Shown here piece after piece: positions 3,103 to 53,369 of a DNA stretch of 64,000 bases. The notes under the pieces are model-generated. The model ran no database searches, was not told where the DNA came from, and saw nothing but the letters and a program-made list of their open reading frames with translations. The stretch covers positions 7,641 to 71,640 of the forward strand of contig JBGURM010000092.1 in the NCBI GenBank assembly GCA_045132035.1. Reading direction: 5' to 3'. The first letter of the stretch is position 1. Each line of letters starts with the position of its first letter. A program made the position numbers and the translations under genes. This DNA is from Bacilli bacterium. Its GTDB lineage: Bacteria > Bacillota_I > Bacilli_A > RFN20 > CAG-826.

Positions 3103-5013
3103 TTATTTTGTGTAAATTCTTTCTTCTGTTTCGCCATCAAAGATGAAGATTTTATGAGGTTTAACTTTAAATGCAACTGGTCCTGGAAGAACTGTGTCAT
3201 CAGCAGAAATAATTGCTTTGAAAGTTGGTTTTGTACAATTTTCGTTATTAGCAACAACACTAATATCACGACCCATAACTTGGATCATTTCACAATTAGC
3301 ATGTAAGACATCTTTGTCTTTATCACTTGCAAGAACAAATCCTTCTGGTCTAATAGCGACATAGACATCTTTATTACCAATTTCTTCATTTGCAGTATAA
3401 ACACAATCGTTACCAACAAAGACTTTCTTTCCTTCAACACGTCCATAGAAAACGTTGATTGGTGGAGTTCCTAAGAATTGAGCAACGAATAAGTTAGCTG
3501 GTGAATTGTAAACATCTTGTGGTTTACCCATTTGTTGCATTTCACCGAGTTTCATAACAACGATTTGATCGGAAATGGACATCGCTTCTTCTTGGTCATG
3601 GGTAACGAAGACAGAAGTAATACCTGTTTCTTGTTGAATACGTCTAATTTCTTCACGTGTTTGTAATCTTAAACGAGCGTCTAAGTTAGATAATGGTTCA
3701 TCTAATAACAAGACGCGTGGGTGTTTAACTAAAGCACGAGCAATAGCGACACGTTGTTGTTGACCACCAGAAAGTTGTGATGGTTTACGTTGTAAATATT
3801 CATCAACTTGAACGAGTTTTGCAGTTTCGTAAACGATATCGCGTCTTTCTTCTTTGGTGAGCTTACGGTGGCTGATTGCTTGAGAAACTGCAGTTTCAAC
3901 ATCAACAAGTTGGAATTTTTCCGCTAATTCTTTTAATAATTCAGCAGATTGTTCTTGTGATGTCTTTAATAACTTAAAGTAAATTTTAGTGTGTTCTTTA
4001 TCAAAGTAAATTTTGAAATCAGCAACGCCACATTTATGTTCCGCTAAGAATCTCTTAACGTTTTGAGTAAGTTCTCTATTGTTAACTGAAGATACTGTGA
4101 AATAAGGATTTTCATATGGATAAGAGGCTTTAACGGCTTCAAACCATTCATTAATTCTTAAGTGTTTGACACCTAAAACACGCGCCATGATTTCATAACC
4201 ATGTTGTGTCTTGGTGATAACTACTTCAGCTGGTTTTCCAAATTCACTAGAGGTTGAATTGAAGAGTTTGATTGTTTCATCAATCGAACTTGTTGAGAAG
4301 TTCTTTCCTAAACGGCCACGGAAAGAAGCATCGATTGTTTCATTTTCAGTGATTATTTCCACTGTCGCACGGAATGTTGTATCAAATAAAGCGTCACTTG
4401 ATTGAACTTCATCTTCGCTTTCAAGTTTAACATCAATAATCTTGTTAACATTATCTGCGAATAACGCTTTTGATGTTTTGGAAACATTAACTAATTCAAC
4501 TTTAATTTCTAAGTTGCGTTCTTTTTCTTGAACATCGAGCTTGAATTGTTTTCTTGAATAACCGGTTTTAGCCGCGAGTGATTGGAAAGCTTTTTTAATT
4601 CCATTAACATCATCGTCTTCCTTCATTTGATAGGAATAAGCAAGATGATATGTGAAGAATGTTTCAAGAGGAACTTCGACTTGTAAACTTGTTAATGGGA
4701 ATTCAATATTCTTATAAATTGTCATATGAGGATATAATGCGTAGTTTTGGAAAACTAAACCAATACCTCTTTTTTCTGGAGATAAGTTGGTAACTTCTTG
4801 ATCACCAAACCAAACTTCACCAGATGTTGGAACTTGTAATCCTGAAATCATATAAAGTGTAGTTGATTTACCACATCCTGATGGGCCAAGAAGACCGACA
4901 AGTGTGCCATCATCAACAACAAAATCCAAGTCCTTAACAGCGATGGTATCACGAATATTCTTTTTGGCATCGCCTGGGAAGATTTTTGTTAAACTCTTAA
5001 TCTTAATTTCCAT
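3103..5013 (-). CDS. ABC transporter ATP-binding protein (MalK/UgpC-like), 636 aa, with a ~280-aa insertion between the Q-loop and the ABC signature
   Basis: Walker A GPSGCGKST, Q-loop VFQNYALYPH, signature LSGGQQQRVAIARAL at residue ~414, Walker B LLLDEPLSNLDA, H-loop VTHDQ, and a C-terminal MalK-type regulatory domain. Confidence 0.85.
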   Translation of the reverse strand: MEIKIKSLTKIFPGDAKKNIRDTIAVKDLDFVVDDGTLVGLLGPSGCGKSTTLYMISGLQVPTSGEVWFGDQEVTNLSPEKRGIGLVFQNYALYPHMTIYKNIEFPLTSLQVEVPLETFFTYHLAYSYQMKEDDDVNGIKKAFQSLAAKTGYSRKQFKLDVQEKERNLEIKVELVNVSKTSKALFADNVNKIIDVKLESEDEVQSSDALFDTTFRATVEIITENETIDASFRGRLGKNFSTSSIDETIKLFNSTSSEFGKPAEVVITKTQHGYEIMARVLGVKHLRINEWFEAVKASYPYENPYFTVSSVNNRELTQNVKRFLAEHKCGVADFKIYFDKEHTKIYFKLLKTSQEQSAELLKELAEKFQLVDVETAVSQAISHRKLTKEERRDIVYETAKLVQVDEYLQRKPSQLSGGQQQRVAIARALVKHPRVLLLDEPLSNLDARLRLQTREEIRRIQQETGITSVFVTHDQEEAMSISDQIVVMKLGEMQQMGKPQDVYNSPANLFVAQFLGTPPINVFYGRVEGKKVFVGNDCVYTANEEIGNKDVYVAIRPEGFVLASDKDKDVLHANCEMIQVMGRDISVVANNENCTKPTFKAIISADDTVLPGPVAFKVKPHKIFIFDGETEERIYTK

Positions 5014-18305: not shown

Positions 18306-18725
18306 TTATTTGGCCGCTTTTGGTTTCTTAGAACCATATAAGCTACGTCCTTGACGACGAGCTTCAATTCCGGCGCAGTCAAGTGTTCCTCTAATAATGT
18401 GGTAACGAACACCTGGTAAGTCCTTAACACGTCCACCACGAATCATAACTGTGGAGTGTTCTTGTAAGTTATGGCCTTCACCACCAATATACGCTGTAAC
18501 TTCGTAACCATTGCTTAAGCGAACACGAGCGTATTTTCTTAAAGCAGAGTTTGGTTTTTTAGGAGTCATTGTACCGACACGGGTGCAAACGCCTCTTTTT
18601 TGGCTAGCAGCTTGGTTTGTTTCTTTTTTCTTTAAAGAGTTCCATCTTTTTCCAAGAGCAGGAGCTTTGGATTTAACAGTGGCTGTTCTACGGCCTTCAC
18701 GGACTAATTGATTAATTGTTGGCAT
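18306..18725 (-). CDS. rpsL: 30S ribosomal protein S12
   Basis: Canonical S12 sequence (PTINQLVR...[10 protein letters not shown]). Confidence 0.95.
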
Positions 18726-18954
18726 TTATATATTGCTCCTTTCAATTATTTCCTAATTCACTGTAATTTGTCCACGCAACCGGTCGTGTCCGTTTTTCCC
18801 TTAAAAAATGGACCATTTCGGTCTGCGGTGAACTAAATCACACGCCTATATAATATATACATCTAGTAAAATCCTGACAAGAAAAAAATAAAAAAATATT
18901 TCAAAAAGTTTAAAAACGGTATTTATAGAAGAAAAAAAGCAATCGATTGACTGC

Positions 18955-19311
18955 TTAAATTCCAACAGCGAGAAGAATAATTTTGATAACTGAAGCAACA
19001 AACAATGCGCCTAGTAATGAATCAAAGACGATTGAGGTGATTCTTATTTGTTTAAGCGTGCTTTTTCTATTATTTAAAGAGAAGAAGAATAAGATAAGAC
19101 TCACTACCGCAATCGCGACAAAGATAAATAAAACAAAGACGACTCCTAATCCCGCAAATAAAGCAACAATAGGCGCTGCTGCAGGATCAGTGTCACCAAC
19201 ATTAATTGTTGACCACCACACTGGGTAAAGCATGATAGCTAAAACAATATTAATTAATAGGAATACTCCAATTATAACTGTTGATGTAGTTCTTGGTTTG
19301 TCGTAATTCAT
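18955..19311 (-). CDS. Small integral membrane protein (3-4 TM), hypothetical
   Basis: 118-aa hydrophobic ORF with a hairpin plus T-run after the stop. Confidence 0.4.
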   Translation of the reverse strand: MNYDKPRTTSTVIIGVFLLINIVLAIMLYPVWWSTINVGDTDPAAAPIVALFAGLGVVFVLFIFVAIAVVSLILFFFSLNNRKSTLKQIRITSIVFDSLLGALFVASVIKIILLAVGI

Positions 19312-19461
19312 ATATCAATTATTGTATACCCCTTGTCATAAAATAATAAGATTTTTTTATTAACAAAGTTAATAACTTGATTCACGAGTAAATTTTTATA
19401 AATATTTTTTCAAAAAAATCGCATTTTCCTCCTCTTATTAAAAGTGAAGGAGGTTTTTAAA

Positions 19462-19773
19462 ATGTCGAAGAAAAATAGAAGCTTATTTACAATCAGAAAA
19501 AAGAAAAAAGAAAGGCATCCACAAATTATAGTTGGTGCTGATAGAACGTCTTTTAAATCAATAGGTTTAACACATTCTAAAAGAAGCGGTAAATCAATAA
19601 ATATCCCATTAAAAAACAATCCAAACAAGAACGATGATAGTCAGGCGTATGCAAAAAGAAGAATTGTCAAAGATTTTAAATTTAGATTTAGCAAAGCTTT
19701 TAAGAATTATCACTTATCCAACGAAGACATTGAAGAATTACAGCGCTTTCTAGAATCAAAGAAAAGAAAATGA
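19462..19773 (+). CDS. Lysine/arginine-rich basic protein, hypothetical (possibly nucleic-acid binding)
   Basis: ATG at 19462 preceded by AAGGAGG. Translation MSKKNRSLFTIRKKKKERH... The track ORF starts at an upstream in-frame ATG at 19444. Confidence 0.45.
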   Translation: MSKKNRSLFTIRKKKKERHPQIIVGADRTSFKSIGLTHSKRSGKSINIPLKNNPNKNDDSQAYAKRRIVKDFKFRFSKAFKNYHLSNEDIEELQRFLESKKRK

Positions 19774-19784
19774 TACTTGTAAAA

Positions 19785-20075
19785 TAAAAAAGAAGTAGCT
19801 CTAGGCGAGAGTCATTAGCTCCTGCGTCCTACTTCCTACATTCAATATATCAACGATTTGATCTAAACAAAAGTATTATTTGCCCTAGTAATTAAAAAGG
19901 AAGTAGCTCTAGGCTAGAGTCATTAGCTCCTACGTCCTACTTCCTATATTTAATATAACAATGTTTTGGCTTAAATAAAAGTATTATTTATTGTAGCAAT
20001 CAAAAAGGAAGTAGCGCTAGGCCAGAGTCATTAGCTCCTACGTCCTACTTCCTACATTTACTATAGCAATAATCA
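19785..20075. repeat. Three tandem ~108-117-bp direct repeats (~85% identical). Each contains a conserved 46-nt hairpin, GGAAGTAG...CTACTTCC.
   Basis: Hairpins at 19792-19836, 19909-19944 and 20017-20052. On the minus strand each hairpin is followed by TTTTT and preceded by a TGnTATA(T/G)T extended -10-like box. Confidence 0.8.
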
Positions 20076-20203
20076 AGCCTATCTTAAAGAAGTTTTATAT
20101 GCACAAATGGAACAATAATTACTTTTTTCTTTTATCATATTAAATATTAATATAAATTATCTATATCAATTCCTTTTGAAGATTGGACACTTAAGGAGAA
20201 GTT

Positions 20204-20668
20204 ATGAAAACATTAATCATGCTAAGCGCTGTCCCAGCAGCGGGTAAATCTACTTGGGCAAAAAAATATCAAGAAACTCACCCAAATACTTATATCGTAA
20301 GTAGCGATGACGTGAGAATTGAAGTCTGCGGTAATTATCGTGACCACTCTAGACAAGCTGAAGTATGGGCGCTATTTGAAAAAAGAATCCACGAATATGG
20401 AGCTATTGATAACGCGACTGTTATTCTTGATGCACTTAATGACGTCAACCCTGTGAGACTTAAATATCTCACCACCACTCCAGAATTTGATAAAAAAATC
20501 TTAGTGCTCTTCCCTTCAACTTTAGAAAAAAGTCAAAAATATAACGGGCAAAGAGATGAAGATGTTCAAGTTCCTCCAGACATCTTAATTGGCTTATATA
20601 ATAAGTTTGAAGCACCAAGCCAAGAAGTCTTAGACCTAGTTGATGAAGTCATCGAAGTAAAATGGTAA
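20204..20668 (+). CDS. P-loop kinase, polynucleotide-kinase-like (AAA_33-type)
   Basis: MLSAVPAAGKSTWAKKY Walker A followed by ...SSDDVR..., resembling the T4 Pnk kinase domain pattern. GGAGAAG RBS. Confidence 0.55.
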   Translation: MKTLIMLSAVPAAGKSTWAKKYQETHPNTYIVSSDDVRIEVCGNYRDHSRQAEVWALFEKRIHEYGAIDNATVILDALNDVNPVRLKYLTTTPEFDKKILVLFPSTLEKSQKYNGQRDEDVQVPPDILIGLYNKFEAPSQEVLDLVDEVIEVKW

Positions 20669-20675
20669 TAATTAA

Positions 20676-20708
20676 ATCATCTATTCAAATCGGATAGATG
20701 ATTTTTTA
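20676..20708 (+). terminator. Rho-independent terminator of the kinase gene
   Basis: ATCATCTAT-loop-ATAGATGAT followed by TTTTTT. Confidence 0.6.
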
Positions 20709-20715
20709 TATAATA

Positions 20716-20743
20716 AAAACCTCCACTTAGTAGTAGAGGTTTT
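20716..20743 (-). terminator. Rho-independent terminator after rpoC
   Basis: AAAACCTC-loop-GAGGTTTT with a T-run on the minus strand. Confidence 0.55.
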
Positions 20744-20756
20744 AGTCATAGTTTAA

Positions 20757-23700
20757 TTAATGAGATTCTCCAGATTTTTGTTCAATCTTTTCGTGAATTT
20801 CATTAATGACACGGTCATGGTCTTCGACGTATCTATCTTTAACTTCATGCATTGTCTTTTCAACACTGAAATCCTTGAGGAGTTCGTTGTTTTCTGCTTC
20901 AGAGAGTAATCCTCTACCAGCAGGAATTAAGTGACCTGTGATGACGTTTTCTTTTAAGCCGTGTAAGTAATCGGTCTTACCTTTAATTGCAGCGTCAGTA
21001 AGAACTCTTGTAGTTTCTTGGAATGATGCGGCAGAAAGGAAGCTATCGGTTTCAAGAGCGGCTTTAGTAATACCTAAGATAAGAGGTGAGAAGACAGCAG
21101 GACGTTTACCGTTAATGATTGCTTCATTATTTTTCGCGGTAAATGTATTTAAGCTGACACGTGTACCGGCAATCATGTCGGTGTCACCACCATCGATAAC
21201 GAAGACTTTTCTTAACATTTGTCTAACGATAACTTCGATGTGTTTATCAGAAATACCGATAGATTGAGAAGAATAGACTTTTTGAACTTCTTTAACGATG
21301 TATCTTTCAACAGTCTTGACGTCACTAACTTCGAGTAATTTCTTAGGATCAATAGCACCTTCAGTGATTTTACCACCACTGACAACTTTATCGCCCTTCT
21401 TGACACGGAGTCTAGCGCCAAAGGCGGTTGTGTAAACTTTTGGTTCAGTTTCAATATCGTTTTCAATAGTAACTAAGTAGCAACCATTTCTTTCTTCAAT
21501 CTTAGTGACTTCACCACTAATTTCAGAAATGAGGGCTTCTCCTTTAGGAGTTCTAGCTTCAAAGAGTTCTTGAACACGAGGTAAACCTTGAGTAATATCG
21601 CTACCAGCAACACCACCAGTGTGGAAGGTTCTCATTGTTAATTGAGTACCTGGTTCACCGATGGATTGAGCAGCCATAATACCAACAGCTTCACCAACTT
21701 GAACTGTTCTACCTGTAGCAAGGTTACGTCCATAACAGTGGACACAGACACCATCTTTAGTTTCACAACCAAATAAGCTTCTGATTTCCACTTCAGTAAT
21801 TCCACAGTCAACGATTTCTTTTGCAGATTCTTCGTTAATCATGGTGTTACCTTGAACGATAACTTCACCAGTATTTGGATTAATGATATCGTTAAGGGCA
21901 AATCTACCGACTAAGCGGTCGAATAATTTGACAATAACAGCGTTTTTAGAGGTATCTCTAATTTCTCTAACAACAAAGCCGTGGTCTGTTCCACAATCGA
22001 CTTCTCTAACGATAACGTCTTGAGAAACGTCAACAAGTCTTCTTGTTAAGTAACCAGAGTCAGCGGTCTTCAAAGCAGTATCAGTACCACCTTTACGAGC
22101 ACCGTGGGTCGCAATAAAGAATTCAGAAACGGTCATACCTTCACGGAAACAACGTTTAACTGGTAATTCAATTTCACCACCAGAGGTGTTACCCATAAGA
22201 CCTCTCATACCTGCTAATTGGGTAATATTGGAGATGTTACCACGAGCACCACTATCACTCATCATGAAGATTGGGTTACGTGTATCTCTTTGTACTTGTT
22301 CAGAAAGACGATCTCTAACGAGTCTAGTAACGTTATTCCAAACAGCAACAACGCTATTATGTCTTTCTTTATCAGTTAACATACCAAGTTCGTACATTTC
22401 TTCGATTTCAGCAACTTTCTTGTCACCGTCTTCTAAGATTTGTTCCTTACCTTCAACCATGTGGATGTCATCTAAGGAGATGGTAAATCCAGCAACAGTC
22501 GCGTATTTGAAGCCTTGGTCTTTCATCTTATCAAGAACTGCACTGGTCTTTGGATTACCTTTACGGTCATAACGTTGGAAGATTTCATTAATAATCTTTC
22601 CTAAGTCACTCTTCTTGATAGGAGCTCTAACTGGTTGAGAAGCAATATAACTTCTCACATCTGTTCCAACTGGAACAAAGTATTCCGCTAAGTCACCCGC
22701 AATATTTTGTGAGTTAACAGCGTTTAAATATGGGAAATCACTTGGGAAGATTTGGTTGAAGATCATCTTACCAACAGAGGTAATGAGATAGCTTCTATTC
22801 ATTTCTTCAGTGAATCCCTTCTTCATAAGCGCACGGCCTAAGATGGCAATACGGTTATGTAAGTGGATTTGTTTTGTTTGATAAGCAAGTAAAACATCAT
22901 CAACACTTCTGAAGACTTTACCTTCACTAGCGGCGTAGAGTTCTAACTCTTCAGCGTATTCTGGATTTTCTTTTCTGATTGCATCAGCTTTCTTTAAGAA
23001 ATCTTCTTTAGTGTTTTCAAGTGTTAAGTAGTAGTTACCAATAACCATGTCTTGAGATGGAGTAACGATTGGTTTTCCATCTTTTGGACCTAAGATGTTA
23101 TTACTAGCAAGCATTAAGTGTAAAGCTTCTTCTTGAGCGGCTTTACTTAGTGGCACGTGAACCGCCATTTGGTCACCATCGAAGTCAGCGTTAAATCCGG
23201 TACAGACAAGTGGGTGTAAACGGATGGCACGACCATCAACTAAGCATGGTTGGAAGGCTTGGATACCAAGTCTATGTAATGTTGGAGCACGGTTAAGTAA
23301 CACTGGGTGTTTACCAATGATTTCTTCGACGATATCAAGAACTTCTGGTTCATATCTATCGATAATCTTGTCGGCTTGCTTATGCGCGTTCGCGATACCT
23401 CTTTTTAATAATTCACAGGCGATAAATGGTCTGAGGAGTTGGACTGCCATTTCTCTTGGTAAACCACATTGATACATCTTTAAGAATGGACCAACCGCGA
23501 TAACGGAACGACCAGAATAGTCGACACGTTTACCTAGTAAGTTTTGTCTAAATCTACCTTGTTTACCTTTTAAGCCACTGGATAATGATTTAAGAGGTCT
23601 TCCTCCTGGGCCAGTAACTGGTTTATTTCTTCTACCATTATCAATTAAAGCGTCAACTGCTTCTTGAAGCATACGTTTTTCATTGAAAAGAAGAACAGCA

Positions 23701-51655: not shown

Positions 51656-52309
51656 ATGCAAAAGAAAAGACTCATCATTTTTGATTTAGACGGAACATTA
51701 ATTAACACTGTTAAAGATTTAAATATCGCTGTTAATTACGCTTTAAGTCAATATAACTATCCTAATAGAACAATTGAACAAACTACCGCTGATATAGGTA
51801 ATGGAGTGGCTAAATTAATTGAAAGAAGTATTCCAGGTGGACTTAATAATCCAAACTATACCGATTGTTTAGCGACTTTTAAAACCTACTACAAAGCCCA
51901 CTATTTTGAGAATTCTTTTCCATATCAAAACGTGAAAGAAACGCTCAATAACCTTAAAGAAACCGGCTATTTGCTTGCTGTTGTCTCTAATAAATTTGAC
52001 GAAGGAGCGAAGAAATTAATTAACTTCTATCTACCAAATATTTTTGATCGTATCCAAGGAAGTATTCCTGAACTTAATTACAAACCATCAAGTGATTTAG
52101 TAAATAAAGTCTTAAAAGAATTAGATGTAAATACTAATGAAGCTCTTTATGTTGGAGACACTAATGTTGATTATGAAACAGCAGTTAATTCTAATTTAGA
52201 CTGTGTTTTAGTAAGCTATGGTTATCGTGATGAAGAATATTTAAAAGAGCATACAAAAAACTCGCCAATCATTTCTGATTTAAGCGAGCTCTTGATTCTT
52301 CTCAAATAA
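51656..52309 (+). CDS. HAD-IA family hydrolase (phosphatase)
   Basis: Motif I IIFDLDGTL, motif II VVSNK, motif III/IV VGDTNVDYETAVNSN. Confidence 0.75.
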   Translation: MQKKRLIIFDLDGTLINTVKDLNIAVNYALSQYNYPNRTIEQTTADIGNGVAKLIERSIPGGLNNPNYTDCLATFKTYYKAHYFENSFPYQNVKETLNNLKETGYLLAVVSNKFDEGAKKLINFYLPNIFDRIQGSIPELNYKPSSDLVNKVLKELDVNTNEALYVGDTNVDYETAVNSNLDCVLVSYGYRDEEYLKEHTKNSPIISDLSELLILLK

Positions 52310-52783
52310 TTCTTTAATTTTATCTTCTACTTTATCTCGATCAACGTTAAACGATATAGCAAATTCATCAAATAATATCGCTTCAGCGTCTTTTAACATT
52401 TGTAAGTCTGTTGGACCAAGCTTCACTACTTGTCCATTCGCATTATAGTAATTAAAGAAATATAGTTGACGTGAGAGATACGCTAAGTCGAAGACATTAC
52501 CTGAAAGTAGTCTTTTTCTATATTTATCTCTTCTTTGTTTGGTGTTATTAATGAACTCAGCCTCTACTGTTTTCATATATTTAACAACTTCACAAGATTC
52601 TTCATATGTCATGATTGGACGAATGATGTTTTCAGTTCTAGAAACCATGACGTAGATATTTTCTTTTGCCCCTTTATCTGAAACAACGACAAAATAGTCA
52701 TTACCTCCGATATTGGTAATATCTTTAATGGTGGATAATCCTTCTCTAGAATGAACTACTCTCTCTCCAACACTATACTTCAT
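52280..52783 (-). CDS. CarD/CdnL-family RNAP-interacting regulator-like protein
   Basis: N-terminal YSVGERVVHSREGLSTIKDI matches the CarD_CdnL_TRCF N-domain pattern. Start likely MKYSV at 52783; the track starts at 52810. Confidence 0.45.
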   Translation of the reverse strand: MKYSVGERVVHSREGLSTIKDITNIGGNDYFVVVSDKGAKENIYVMVSRTENIIRPIMTYEESCEVVKYMKTVEAEFINNTKQRRDKYRKRLLSGNVFDLAYLSRQLYFFNYYNANGQVVKLGPTDLQMLKDAEAILFDEFAISFNVDRDKVEDKIKELFEKNQELA

Positions 52784-52797
52784 ACTATAATTATCGC

Positions 52798-52838
52798 AAA
52801 AAAAAGGCAATTCGACAAACGCAAATTGCCATTTTTAT
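52798..52838 (-). terminator. Rho-independent terminator after the dUTPase-like gene
   Basis: GGCAATT-loop-AATTGCC flanked by an A-run and a T-run. Confidence 0.6.
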
Positions 52839-52877
52839 ATTACTTTTTGGTAAACAAGAACGACTTTATTAACAAAG

Positions 52878-53369
52878 TTAATAATTAGTTTCTTGTCTTA
52901 CATGATTTTCTTTTAATTTGAGGTAATAAGCCTCTTTAGCCTCTAACCAGCTATATCCGAGTTTGAAAAGGGCACGTAAGTAGCTTTTAAAGGCTAATAT
53001 ATAGTTAGATTCAGTCTGACTTTGATAGAAAATAGAGGTTAATTCATAAGTCTTTAAGAGGTTATCTGTTAGACTCATTTCATCGTCAAATACTTCTATC
53101 TCATCTACGATGTAATTTTGATCAATACCAAGTGAGAGAAGGAAATGTAACCCATCAGCGAATTCATCAAGAACTCTTTCTTTAGATTCTGGACCTTTAT
53201 TAGACCAGTATTTAAATGTCCTTGTCGCGTTAGCGAATTCTCCTAACTCAACAAGTAGAGAAAGTGTTCTCTTATTTCTTGTTGATTCATAAGTGACATT
53301 ATGATTTTTAGCGATTTCTTCGTCGAGCTCTCTTTGCTTGATATATAAATCTTTTAAATCACAAATCAT
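52878..53369 (-). CDS. All-alpha NTP pyrophosphohydrolase, dimeric-dUTPase (dUTPase_2)-like
   Basis: LVELGEFANATRTFKYWSNK...VLDEFADGLHFLLSLGI and C-terminal AYYLKLKENHVRQ. ATG overlaps the glgP stop (TAATG). Confidence 0.5.
   Translation of the reverse strand: MICDLKDLYIKQRELDEEIAKNHNVTYESTRNKRTLSLLVELGEFANATRTFKYWSNKGPESKERVLDEFADGLHFLLSLGIDQNYIVDEIEVFDDEMSLTDNLLKTYELTSIFYQSQTESNYILAFKSYLRALFKLGYSWLEAKEAYYLKLKENHVRQETNY

Follow-up and report, generated by a model that had tools for sequence, protein, structure and literature searches.

Tandem putative small-RNA genes at the 3' end of a predicted MazF-fold gene in uncultured gut Bacilli: a candidate RNA antitoxin array

The stretch of DNA analyzed here (the window: 64,000 nt of contig JBGURM010000092.1, from the Bacilli bacterium assembly GCA_045132035.1) carries, between rpsL and rpoC, three tandem copies of a short hairpin-bearing unit, placed just downstream of an open reading frame (ORF) for a 103-aa protein, ORF103. 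The likeliest reading of this locus, which we put forward tentatively from its sequence, is that of an RNA-controlled toxin-like module, composed of tandem antisense RNA-antitoxin-like genes and a MazF-fold ORF103. The initial annotation had likened the array to multi-copy small-RNA (sRNA) loci. Beyond that description, related genomes link the RNA with the 3' end of neighbouring ORF103, whose predicted fold is MazF-like, and this coupling, together with the predicted fold, turns a multi-copy sRNA locus into a candidate RNA antitoxin array.

Results

The tandem array

Tandem Repeats Finder reports a repeat with a period of 108 bp at 19785-20070 (2.6 copies, 87% matches, no indels), and a repeat search places three 108-nt copies in register, starting at 19782, 19890 and 19998. 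Aligned with MAFFT, the units show 88% mean column identity, with a near-perfect hairpin and a decayed spacer in unit 3, in agreement with the three tandem units and 46-nt hairpins originally described. Each hairpin has the form (A/G)GAAGTAG-30 nt-CTACTTCC and spans 19791/2-19836, 19899-19944 or 20007-20052. The first of these had been located correctly in the initial annotation, but the starts given there for the other two, 19909 and 20017, are typographical errors for 19899 and 20007. The stem letters also call for amendment, since the plus strand of unit 1 reads AGAAGTAG and not GGAAGTAG; on the minus strand this hairpin is closed by a G·U pair. At up to one mismatch, the 64 kb contain the 29-nt hairpin core, AGAGTCATTAGCTCCTACGTCCTACTTCC, three times, and shuffled sequences lack it.

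On the minus strand, TGnTATAnT precedes each hairpin and a run of five or six U residues comes after it. The three extended -10 boxes proposed at the outset (TGaTATATT, TGtTATATT and TGcTATAGT) are genuine, and the U-runs are present after every hairpin as claimed (coordinates in Table 1). The boxes end 8 nt ahead of GAAGTAG, which amounts to 7 nt ahead of the G-extended stem. In unit 3 a -35-like TTAAGA starts at 20087 with a 16-nt spacer, and a consensus promoter scan picks 20087..20060 with its TG. A consensus scan for terminators finds terminator-like sites in the region above expectation; the array hairpins themselves go unscored, their loops being too large. Unit 1 begins 13-18 nt past the stop codon of ORF103 and is antisense to the presumed 3' untranslated region (UTR) of this gene. 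Single-unit folding z-scores are modest on both strands (-1.0 to -3.6). It is comparison between loci, rather than thermodynamics within the window, that argues for structure.

Hairpin structure and covariation

The comparison set consists of 29 distinct units from about 15 loci (the window and L010-L036), all in metagenome-assembled genomes (MAGs) of uncultured gut Bacilli/Erysipelotrichaceae. Their hairpins share a common architecture, made up of a 7-bp basal stem, a 5' bulge, 1-2 bp, a 4-5-nt 3' bulge, 3-4 bp and an apical stem-loop, in which two types of inner sequence, A and B, can be accommodated. A single joint structure for both types was rejected because the basal stem is the sole part they share, and the two types were thus analyzed apart. 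The basal stem is found as GAAGUAG/CUACUUC, GAAACAG/CUGUUUC, GAAGCAC/GUGCUUC and GAGGUAG/CUGCCUC. In type B (9 sequences), 7 of 17 pairs show compensatory double changes and 98.7% of cells are paired; none of 500 shuffles was as good, and slid alignments reached 31-47% paired. The 14 pairs of type A (12 sequences) vary via U·G, C-G and U-A. Conservation is concentrated in the bulges and internal loops. The apical stems and loops are variable, with GNRA tetraloops (GAAA, GUAA) among those of type B. A 29-nt stretch is identical between species whose ORF103 proteins are just 60-72% identical.

Covariation of the stem across copies and related genomes and a search against Rfam were two of the checks suggested in the initial annotation. 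The first is borne out by the 7 double-changed pairs among the 17 of type B. As for the second, a cmscan of 18700-20800 against Rfam release 15 (E<=10) returned no relevant family across 19785-20075, the sole matches, snoR135 (E 2.9) and sno_ncR3 (E 5.3), being attributable to chance. ARAGORN detects no transfer RNA (tRNA) or transfer-messenger RNA in the array.

Promoter, terminator and coding strand

On the strand antisense to ORF103, a TAnnnT hexamer is found 6-9 nt upstream of the hairpin in all 29 units, and a TG extension or a -35 element (>=4/6 matches at 16-18 nt) is added in 27 of them. With the same criteria applied to the ORF103 strand as a control, a single unit of the 29 qualifies. 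The promoter of the L032 unit is a perfect TTGACA-17-TATAAT, and a U-rich run (U5-7; >=5/7 nt) follows the hairpin on the antisense strand in every unit.

The pairing pattern is likewise asymmetric between strands. With structures derived from the antisense alignment, a caveat that applies to all these counts, type B yields 135 Watson-Crick pairs, 12 G·U pairs and 2 mismatches on the antisense strand, versus 135, 0 and 14 on the ORF strand. The corresponding values for type A are 145, 16 and 4 versus 145, 1 and 19, so that both types together give 28 wobbles and 6 mismatches on the antisense strand, as opposed to 1 and 33. The choice of alignment strand has no bearing on the wobbles of the basal stem, which L011, L013 and L034 show as GAAGCAG on the ORF strand. 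Consensus energies computed with alifold are -18.2 (antisense) versus -9.0 kcal/mol (ORF strand) for type B, and -9.6 versus -1.6 kcal/mol for type A. Promoter and terminator conservation, covariation and the G·U strand asymmetry lead us to conclude that each unit is a putative autonomous gene for a ~50-nt minus-strand RNA. The reading of the units as minus-strand sRNA genes, first offered for the window, thus finds comparative support across the 29 units in promoter, U-run, stem covariation and G·U strand bias.

Dispersal over the genome beside transposase remnants, the outcome named at the outset as contrary to that reading, is not what is seen in the 64-kb window and the related loci scanned; covariance models of types A and B find no extra copy either in the window or in related loci devoid of ORF103. 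An array resembling CRISPR or integron attC sites was also considered and rejected, given that homology between units extends to the spacers and that there is a promoter in every unit.

ORF103 and its leader

Homologues of ORF103 are 99-116 aa long. They form 62 clusters at 90% identity, none of them annotated, and a profile search extends the family to 295 clusters at 50% identity. His19-Pro20, His38 (in L/I-T-H-S), Asn47, Asn53 and Asp58 are invariant in the family alignment, which also shows a KKKK C-terminus. None of the families in Pfam, NCBIfam, PHROGs or PADLOC covers ORF103. The AlphaFold2 model (predicted local distance difference test 76, predicted template-modelling score 0.62) shows a beta-sheet core, arranged as a beta-barrel, and a C-terminal helix. 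When the PDB was searched with Foldseek, the best 50 matches were all MazF toxins (prob 0.89-1.00, query template-modelling score 0.47-0.60, E 0.03-0.4), from S. aureus, B. subtilis, E. coli and M. tuberculosis among them, and no ToxN, CptN or AbiQ chain appears within those 50. The top matches in BFVD include a 'PemK-like protein' and an 'Endoribonuclease'. These models provide moderate evidence for a MazF/PemK-like fold in ORF103. At the sequence level, Pfam PemK_toxin (PF02452) has no match in ORF103 and 29 close homologues at E<=10, and PDB sequence searches with ORF103 family profiles returned nothing.

The ORF103 leader, folded with RNAfold from -75 to +9, contains an anti-Shine-Dalgarno CCUCCUC (19428-19434) that pairs with GAAGGAGG (19446-19453), which bears the Shine-Dalgarno (SD) sequence; UUUUU (19454-19458) follows, ahead of the ATG at 19462. 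The SD is paired in the minimum free energy fold of 9 of 12 leaders from homologous loci, usually with a U-run after it. As read from these sequences, the combination of an SD-sequestering leader and putative antisense RNAs would amount to a tight double repression, of the kind typical of toxic genes.

Further upstream, at ~90-130 nt from ORF103 and its type A-clade homologues (L013, L015, L026-28, L036), lies a perfect palindrome, TTATTAAC-NNN-GTTAATAA, located at 1703 in L013, 830 in L015, 2510 in L026 and 2653 in L036, the latter being a compensated variant, TTATCAAC/GTTGATAA. This palindrome probably serves the module as an operator or promoter element, an operator on which some regulator would act. 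It recurs at 52866-52884 of the window, ahead of a 176-aa gene on the minus strand (52280-52810) whose sequence suggests a CarD/CdnL-like protein, and at 3104 in L008, ahead of infC.

The module in other genomes

An exact type A core is present at five loci among 185,579 species genomes (one genome per species), in rabbit and rumen MAGs. A hairpin of this shared architecture comes right after an ORF103 homologue in L012, L013/L026-28, L016-23, L024/25, L031, L032, L033, L034, L035 and L036, and these ORF103-linked hairpins span at least 6 different genomic contexts. The two usually overlap, the TAG stop codon being embedded in GAAGTAG of the 5' arm and the A-run being formed by the last Lys codons. 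The RNA type, A or B, tracks the ORF103 protein clades. There are three units in the window and in L013/L026-28, two in L033, L034 and L036, one plus a degenerate one in L029, and one at other ORF-linked loci; arrays of 2-4 units occur at no fewer than 8 of the ~15 loci, with units 75-196 bp apart.

Apart from its location by rpsL in the window, the module is found after infC-rpmI-rplT, after an EF-G paralogue near udk and a TIR gene, after a DUF1846 gene with a Fic/RhuM gene two genes upstream, and on the integrase-bearing contig L012; in L016-L023 and L031 the hairpin sits between convergent ORF99 and thiI. The TIR_2-domain protein is encoded two genes from the ORF103 homologue in L013 (3076-4110, minus) and L026-L028, and the RhuM/Fic protein upstream of the module in L029 (1394-2323); both are neighbours of a defence or toxin type. 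L013 also holds a distant 112-aa paralogue of ORF103 (4464-4802) and, downstream of it, a relatively G+C-rich, structured-looking non-coding stretch (4200-4460, minus) without a hairpin of the array type.

Orphan arrays are present in three loci (L010, L011 and L014), with no ORF103 remnant in the 8 kb analysed at each. Their RNA genes are identical to those on the integrase-bearing element of L012, which comes from the same rabbit-gut samples. On this 7.5-kb contig (1-7479), a central tyrosine integrase accompanies two inverted copies of ORF384-ORF77-ORF105-sRNA, ORF105 being the ORF103 homologue; the inverted double module is either a real duplication or an assembly artefact. Among the L012 proteins, the integrase alone matches PHROGs. 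Neither the hairpin DNA pattern nor the ORF103 protein profile has a match in IMG/VR, and a tblastn search with ORF103 found none among 50,697 records of phages and 72,556 of plasmids.

Genomic neighbourhood

The gene order in the window is fusA-rpsG-rpsL (minus), ORF118 (minus), ORF103 (plus), the three units, the ORF154 kinase (plus) and rpoC (minus). Relatives with a kinase 82-83% identical show rpsL, ~400 bp, the kinase and rpoC, and lack ORF118, ORF103 and the repeats. The '2.2-kb accessory insert' of the initial annotation is consequently an overestimate: the insert is of ~1.2 kb, and the 154-aa kinase, which repeat-less relatives keep between rpsL and rpoC, is a resident gene unrelated to the repeats. 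In another lineage (L008) the kinase gene adjoins thrS. The possibility that the hairpins are tRNA-like substrates of this KTI12/PSTK-like kinase was rejected, since the kinase occurs without repeats and the hairpins without the kinase.

ORF118 is divergent from ORF103, points in the same direction as the sRNA units and is not seen beside ORF103 homologues elsewhere; a terminator-like hairpin (18937-18956) lies at this gene. Two back-to-back terminator-like hairpins (20674-20743) separate the convergent kinase gene and rpoC, and their weak sub-threshold matches to Rfam sRNAs probably reflect mere terminator resemblance. A Logan contig identical to the window ends inside unit 3.

Table 1. Coordinates of the module and of neighbouring features (window positions unless a locus is named)
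Feature	Position	Strand	Description
sRNA unit 1	19785..19852	minus	Extended -10 TGaTATATT 19852-19844; hairpin GGAAGUAG...CUACUUCU 19836-19791; U-run 19790-19785; covariance-model R2 match 19785-19835, 77.4 bits, E 4.6e-15
sRNA unit 2	19893..19960	minus	Extended -10 TGtTATATT 19960-19952; hairpin 19944-19899; U-run 19898-19894; R2 76.9 bits
sRNA unit 3	20001..20087	minus	TGcTATAGT 20068-20060; hairpin 20052-20007; U-run 20006-20002; R2 78.9 bits
ORF103	19462..19773	plus	103-aa basic, Lys-rich protein; conserved HPQ(I/V)IV and (L/I)THS motifs; KKKK C-terminus
ORF103 leader hairpin	19428..19458	plus	Terminator-like; SD sequestered
8-3-8 palindrome	19357..19375		TTATTAAC-AAA-GTTAATAA, upstream of ORF103
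Insert versus relatives	~18936..20125, ~1.2 kb		From alignment with L002; holds ORF118, ORF103 and the three sRNA units
ORF118	18955-19311	minus	118-aa predicted membrane protein; no family match
ORF154 kinase	20204-20668	plus	154-aa P-loop protein; Pfam AAA_33/KTI12; PSTK-like; weak PSTK and Pnkp similarity
Orphan arrays	L010 229-645; L011 1205-1844; L014 3727-3953	towards ackA	2-4 units, types A and B mixed; ackA-glgB intergenic; rabbit-gut MAGs

Discussion

A possible antisense module and its precedents

If the tentatively favoured reading is correct, a sigma-70-type extended -10 promoter would direct transcription to start at the hairpin foot, and the 44-46-nt irregular hairpin with its five or six U residues would make up the RNA body and serve as the intrinsic terminator at once. 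The resulting ~50-nt RNA would be the cognate partner of the convergent ORF103, whose translation would already be throttled by the SD-sequestering, terminator-like leader. Acting as RNA antitoxins or repressors, the sRNAs would pair with the perfectly complementary hairpin or hairpins that the ORF103 mRNA carries in its 3' end or 3' UTR, the ensuing duplex would lead to decay or silencing of that mRNA, and the triplicated unit may provide a higher antitoxin dosage.

In the par locus of pAD1, a ~40-nt RNA II, convergent promoters and a shared bidirectional terminator are combined with a 5' stem-loop that sequesters the SD, and the complementary stem-loops of the shared terminator are the contact site of the two RNAs (PMC7472228). 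As read from its sequence, the module described here resembles Fst/RNA II of par in having convergent promoters, a shared terminator hairpin and an SD-sequestering leader. It is because the convergent promoters, the tiny terminator-hairpin RNA and the SD-sequestering 5' stem-loop match par(pAD1) that antisense, type I-like action is favoured as the putative mode of neutralisation. The protein, on the other hand, is of another kind: Fst is a hydrophobic peptide of ~33 aa and type I toxins are typically hydrophobic membrane peptides of <60 aa, whereas ORF103 is a basic, soluble protein of ~100 aa with a MazF-like predicted fold, from a Lys-rich family of 99-116 aa. The module also departs from par in lacking a second complementarity of the DRa/DRb type to the ORF103 initiation region, in the tandem multiplication of its RNA gene, which is found in orphan arrays as well, and in the conservation of bulge and loop sequence.

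Small antisense RNAs with a strong promoter and a body consisting largely of a terminator hairpin are known from rolling-circle plasmids, as counter-transcript RNAs (pMV158 RNA II, for instance), and from the B. subtilis type I antitoxins RatA, SR4, SR5 and SR6. These B. subtilis members of the group overlap the 3' end of their target mRNA (for SR6, PMC5848175), are 100-220 nt long and are single-copy. The RNAs proposed here are similar to pMV158 RNA II and the B. subtilis SR RNAs in being small, antisense and mostly terminator hairpin, but unlike pMV158 RNA II they have no replicon context, no homologue is present in the collections of phages and plasmids, and the targets differ. With type II MazEF/PemIK systems the module shares the MazF match of its predicted fold. 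It differs from them in the lack of a PemK_toxin Pfam match and of profile similarity to B. subtilis MazF, and in the absence of a MazE-like gene upstream: there is no ORF between ORF118 and ORF103, and the leader is non-coding. The upstream neighbours of ORF103 homologues differ in every locus.

Several observations weigh against an antisense antitoxin. At three loci (the window, L015 and L029) the coding region is not overlapped by the first sRNA, whose antisense match is confined to the presumed 3' UTR. RNAduplex comparison of the sRNA with the ORF103 initiation region (-70..+30, 9 loci) gives z-scores of -1.0 to +1.4 relative to shuffles and, since no complementarity above shuffles is found, a translational block like that of par is not supported. 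The GNRA apical tetraloops of type B would make poor kissing loops, and the conserved bulges and internal loops, together with the 29-nt identity across species, point to a sequence-specific partner in trans rather than to mere complementarity in cis. Regarding the protein, homology to MazF cannot be demonstrated at the sequence level (an hhalign comparison with B. subtilis MazF yields a probability of 0.2%), and PemK_toxin is touched by just 1 of 134 remote ORF103 relatives (E 7.7e-4). Furthermore, many genomes carry an ORF103 homologue after infC-rpmI-rplT, a conserved placement that would suit a housekeeping role in nucleic-acid binding as well.

Alternative explanations

Ranked second, behind antisense type I-like action, and in our view rather doubtful, is a type III-like mechanism in which the hairpin RNAs would bind the MazF-fold protein directly, their antisense position being a by-product of the shared terminator, and in which tandem and orphan arrays would supply stoichiometric excess or cross-immunity. 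The type III toxins ToxN, CptN and AbiQ have a Kid/MazF core fold and antitoxins that consist of tandem RNA repeats (PMC5086642). Like ToxIN, CptIN, TenpIN and AbiQ/antiQ, the locus sets tandem small structured RNA repeats beside a gene of Kid/MazF-like predicted fold, with a repeat number that varies by locus and with co-divergence of RNA type and protein clade. Arrays of 2-4 units at >=8 of the ~15 loci, orphan arrays without ORF103 remnant (L010, L011, L014), bulges and internal loops conserved over variable apical parts that include GNRA tetraloops, the 29 nt kept intact between species and the lack of sRNA complementarity to the translation initiation region of ORF103 all speak for this mechanism as well. 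Yet the layout is unlike that of every described type III system, where the repeats, of 34-45 nt, precede the toxin gene and share its strand, operon and single promoter, with a terminator in between, and are cut to monomers by the toxin. The units described here, spaced 75-196 bp apart, follow the gene on the opposite strand, every one with a promoter and a terminator to itself, which would make toxin-dependent processing unneeded; a terminator-like hairpin (19428-19458) does precede ORF103, but there are no repeats upstream of it. The absence of ToxN, CptN and AbiQ chains from the best 50 fold matches also counts against a type III-like mechanism. ToxN-type toxins are larger than ORF103 (~100 aa). 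A more speculative proposal, to which we give less credence still, is that of a hybrid type I/III class of RNA antitoxins, in which a MazF-fold toxin family (~300 clusters at 50%) without protein antitoxin would be controlled by ~50-nt hairpin RNAs, transcribed one by one from convergent genes at its 3' end and multiplied in tandem, and the orphan arrays would possibly be immunity loci.

An improbable alternative accepts the sRNAs as genuine but takes ORF103 for a non-toxic, housekeeping basic nucleic-acid-binding protein, for example one associated with the ribosome or with RNA, tuned by a cis-antisense RNA. The synteny after infC-rpmI-rplT in many genomes, the rpsL neighbour in the window and the location after an EF-G paralogue in L013 would suit such a protein, as would the modest fold match (TM 0.5-0.6) and the undetectable sequence homology to MazF. 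The gene is nonetheless patchily distributed (L002, L005 and L008 lack it, although closely related and alike in neighbourhood), one homologue resides on an integrase element (L012), others lie near TIR and Fic/RhuM genes, and the doubled repression by SD-sequestering leader and antisense arrays is typical of toxic genes. Less probable again is the notion that the hairpins are plain, perhaps bidirectional, terminators or insulators of ORF103 that were duplicated by slippage, the promoter boxes being A/T-rich noise. A G+C-containing hairpin with an A-run and a T-rich tail at a gene 3' end fits this description, and so do its position between convergent ORF99 and thiI in L016-L023 and L031 and the regional surplus of terminator-like sites in the consensus scan, although the latter does not comprise these hairpins. 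Noise, however, would not account for a -10 element at a fixed 6-9 nt in 29/29 units and a TG or -35 in 27/29, compared with 1/29 for the opposite strand. Loop and bulge sequences are kept between species, the G·U asymmetry indicates selection on the strand antisense to ORF103 and, hence, not on a terminator of ORF103 itself, and the orphan arrays of the ackA-glgB region have no convergent gene end beside them. We consider least probable of all, and very improbable, that the units act at the DNA level as relics or active sites of mobile elements, be it miniature inverted-repeat transposable elements (MITE) or repetitive extragenic palindromes (REP), an att site of the L012 integrase, or a single-stranded DNA origin or oriT hairpin. 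It is true that the module lies in a ~1.2-kb insert that close relatives lack, that an identical hairpin and promoter are found on the integrase-bearing contig, and that metagenome assemblies break within the repeat (L001, L015). In contrast to REP/MITE repeats, copy number is low, with three copies in 64 kb, all of them in this array, and five exact-core loci in the 185,579 species genomes; there is no transposase nearby, and the units of every array share a single orientation, with a complete promoter. The collections of phages, plasmids and viruses searched contain neither ORF103 homologues nor the hairpin, and the G·U asymmetry implies selection at the RNA level, for a DNA hairpin would not tolerate wobbles.

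Implications

When the literature was searched for tandem sRNA antitoxin genes and for MazF-like toxins paired with an RNA or antisense antitoxin, only the known type I and III systems were found. If confirmed, the array would represent a new, covariance-supported RNA family outside Rfam, and ORF103 a new protein family outside Pfam, NCBIfam, PHROGs and PADLOC. It would place a MazF/Kid-fold family under the control of RNA, instead of a MazE-type protein, in a layout unlike any described type III system, thereby joining a type I architecture with the toxin structure and repeat amplification of type III. The toxin-less arrays of L010, L011 and L014 could, if this reading is true, be anti-addiction or immunity loci against toxin copies borne by mobile elements, and the identity of their RNA genes with those of a mobile element would, upon confirmation, make them a concrete test of the idea of anti-addiction by RNA antitoxins. 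More generally, confirmation would provide the little-studied, uncultured gut Bacilli/Erysipelotrichia with a compact and easily testable sRNA-protein module.

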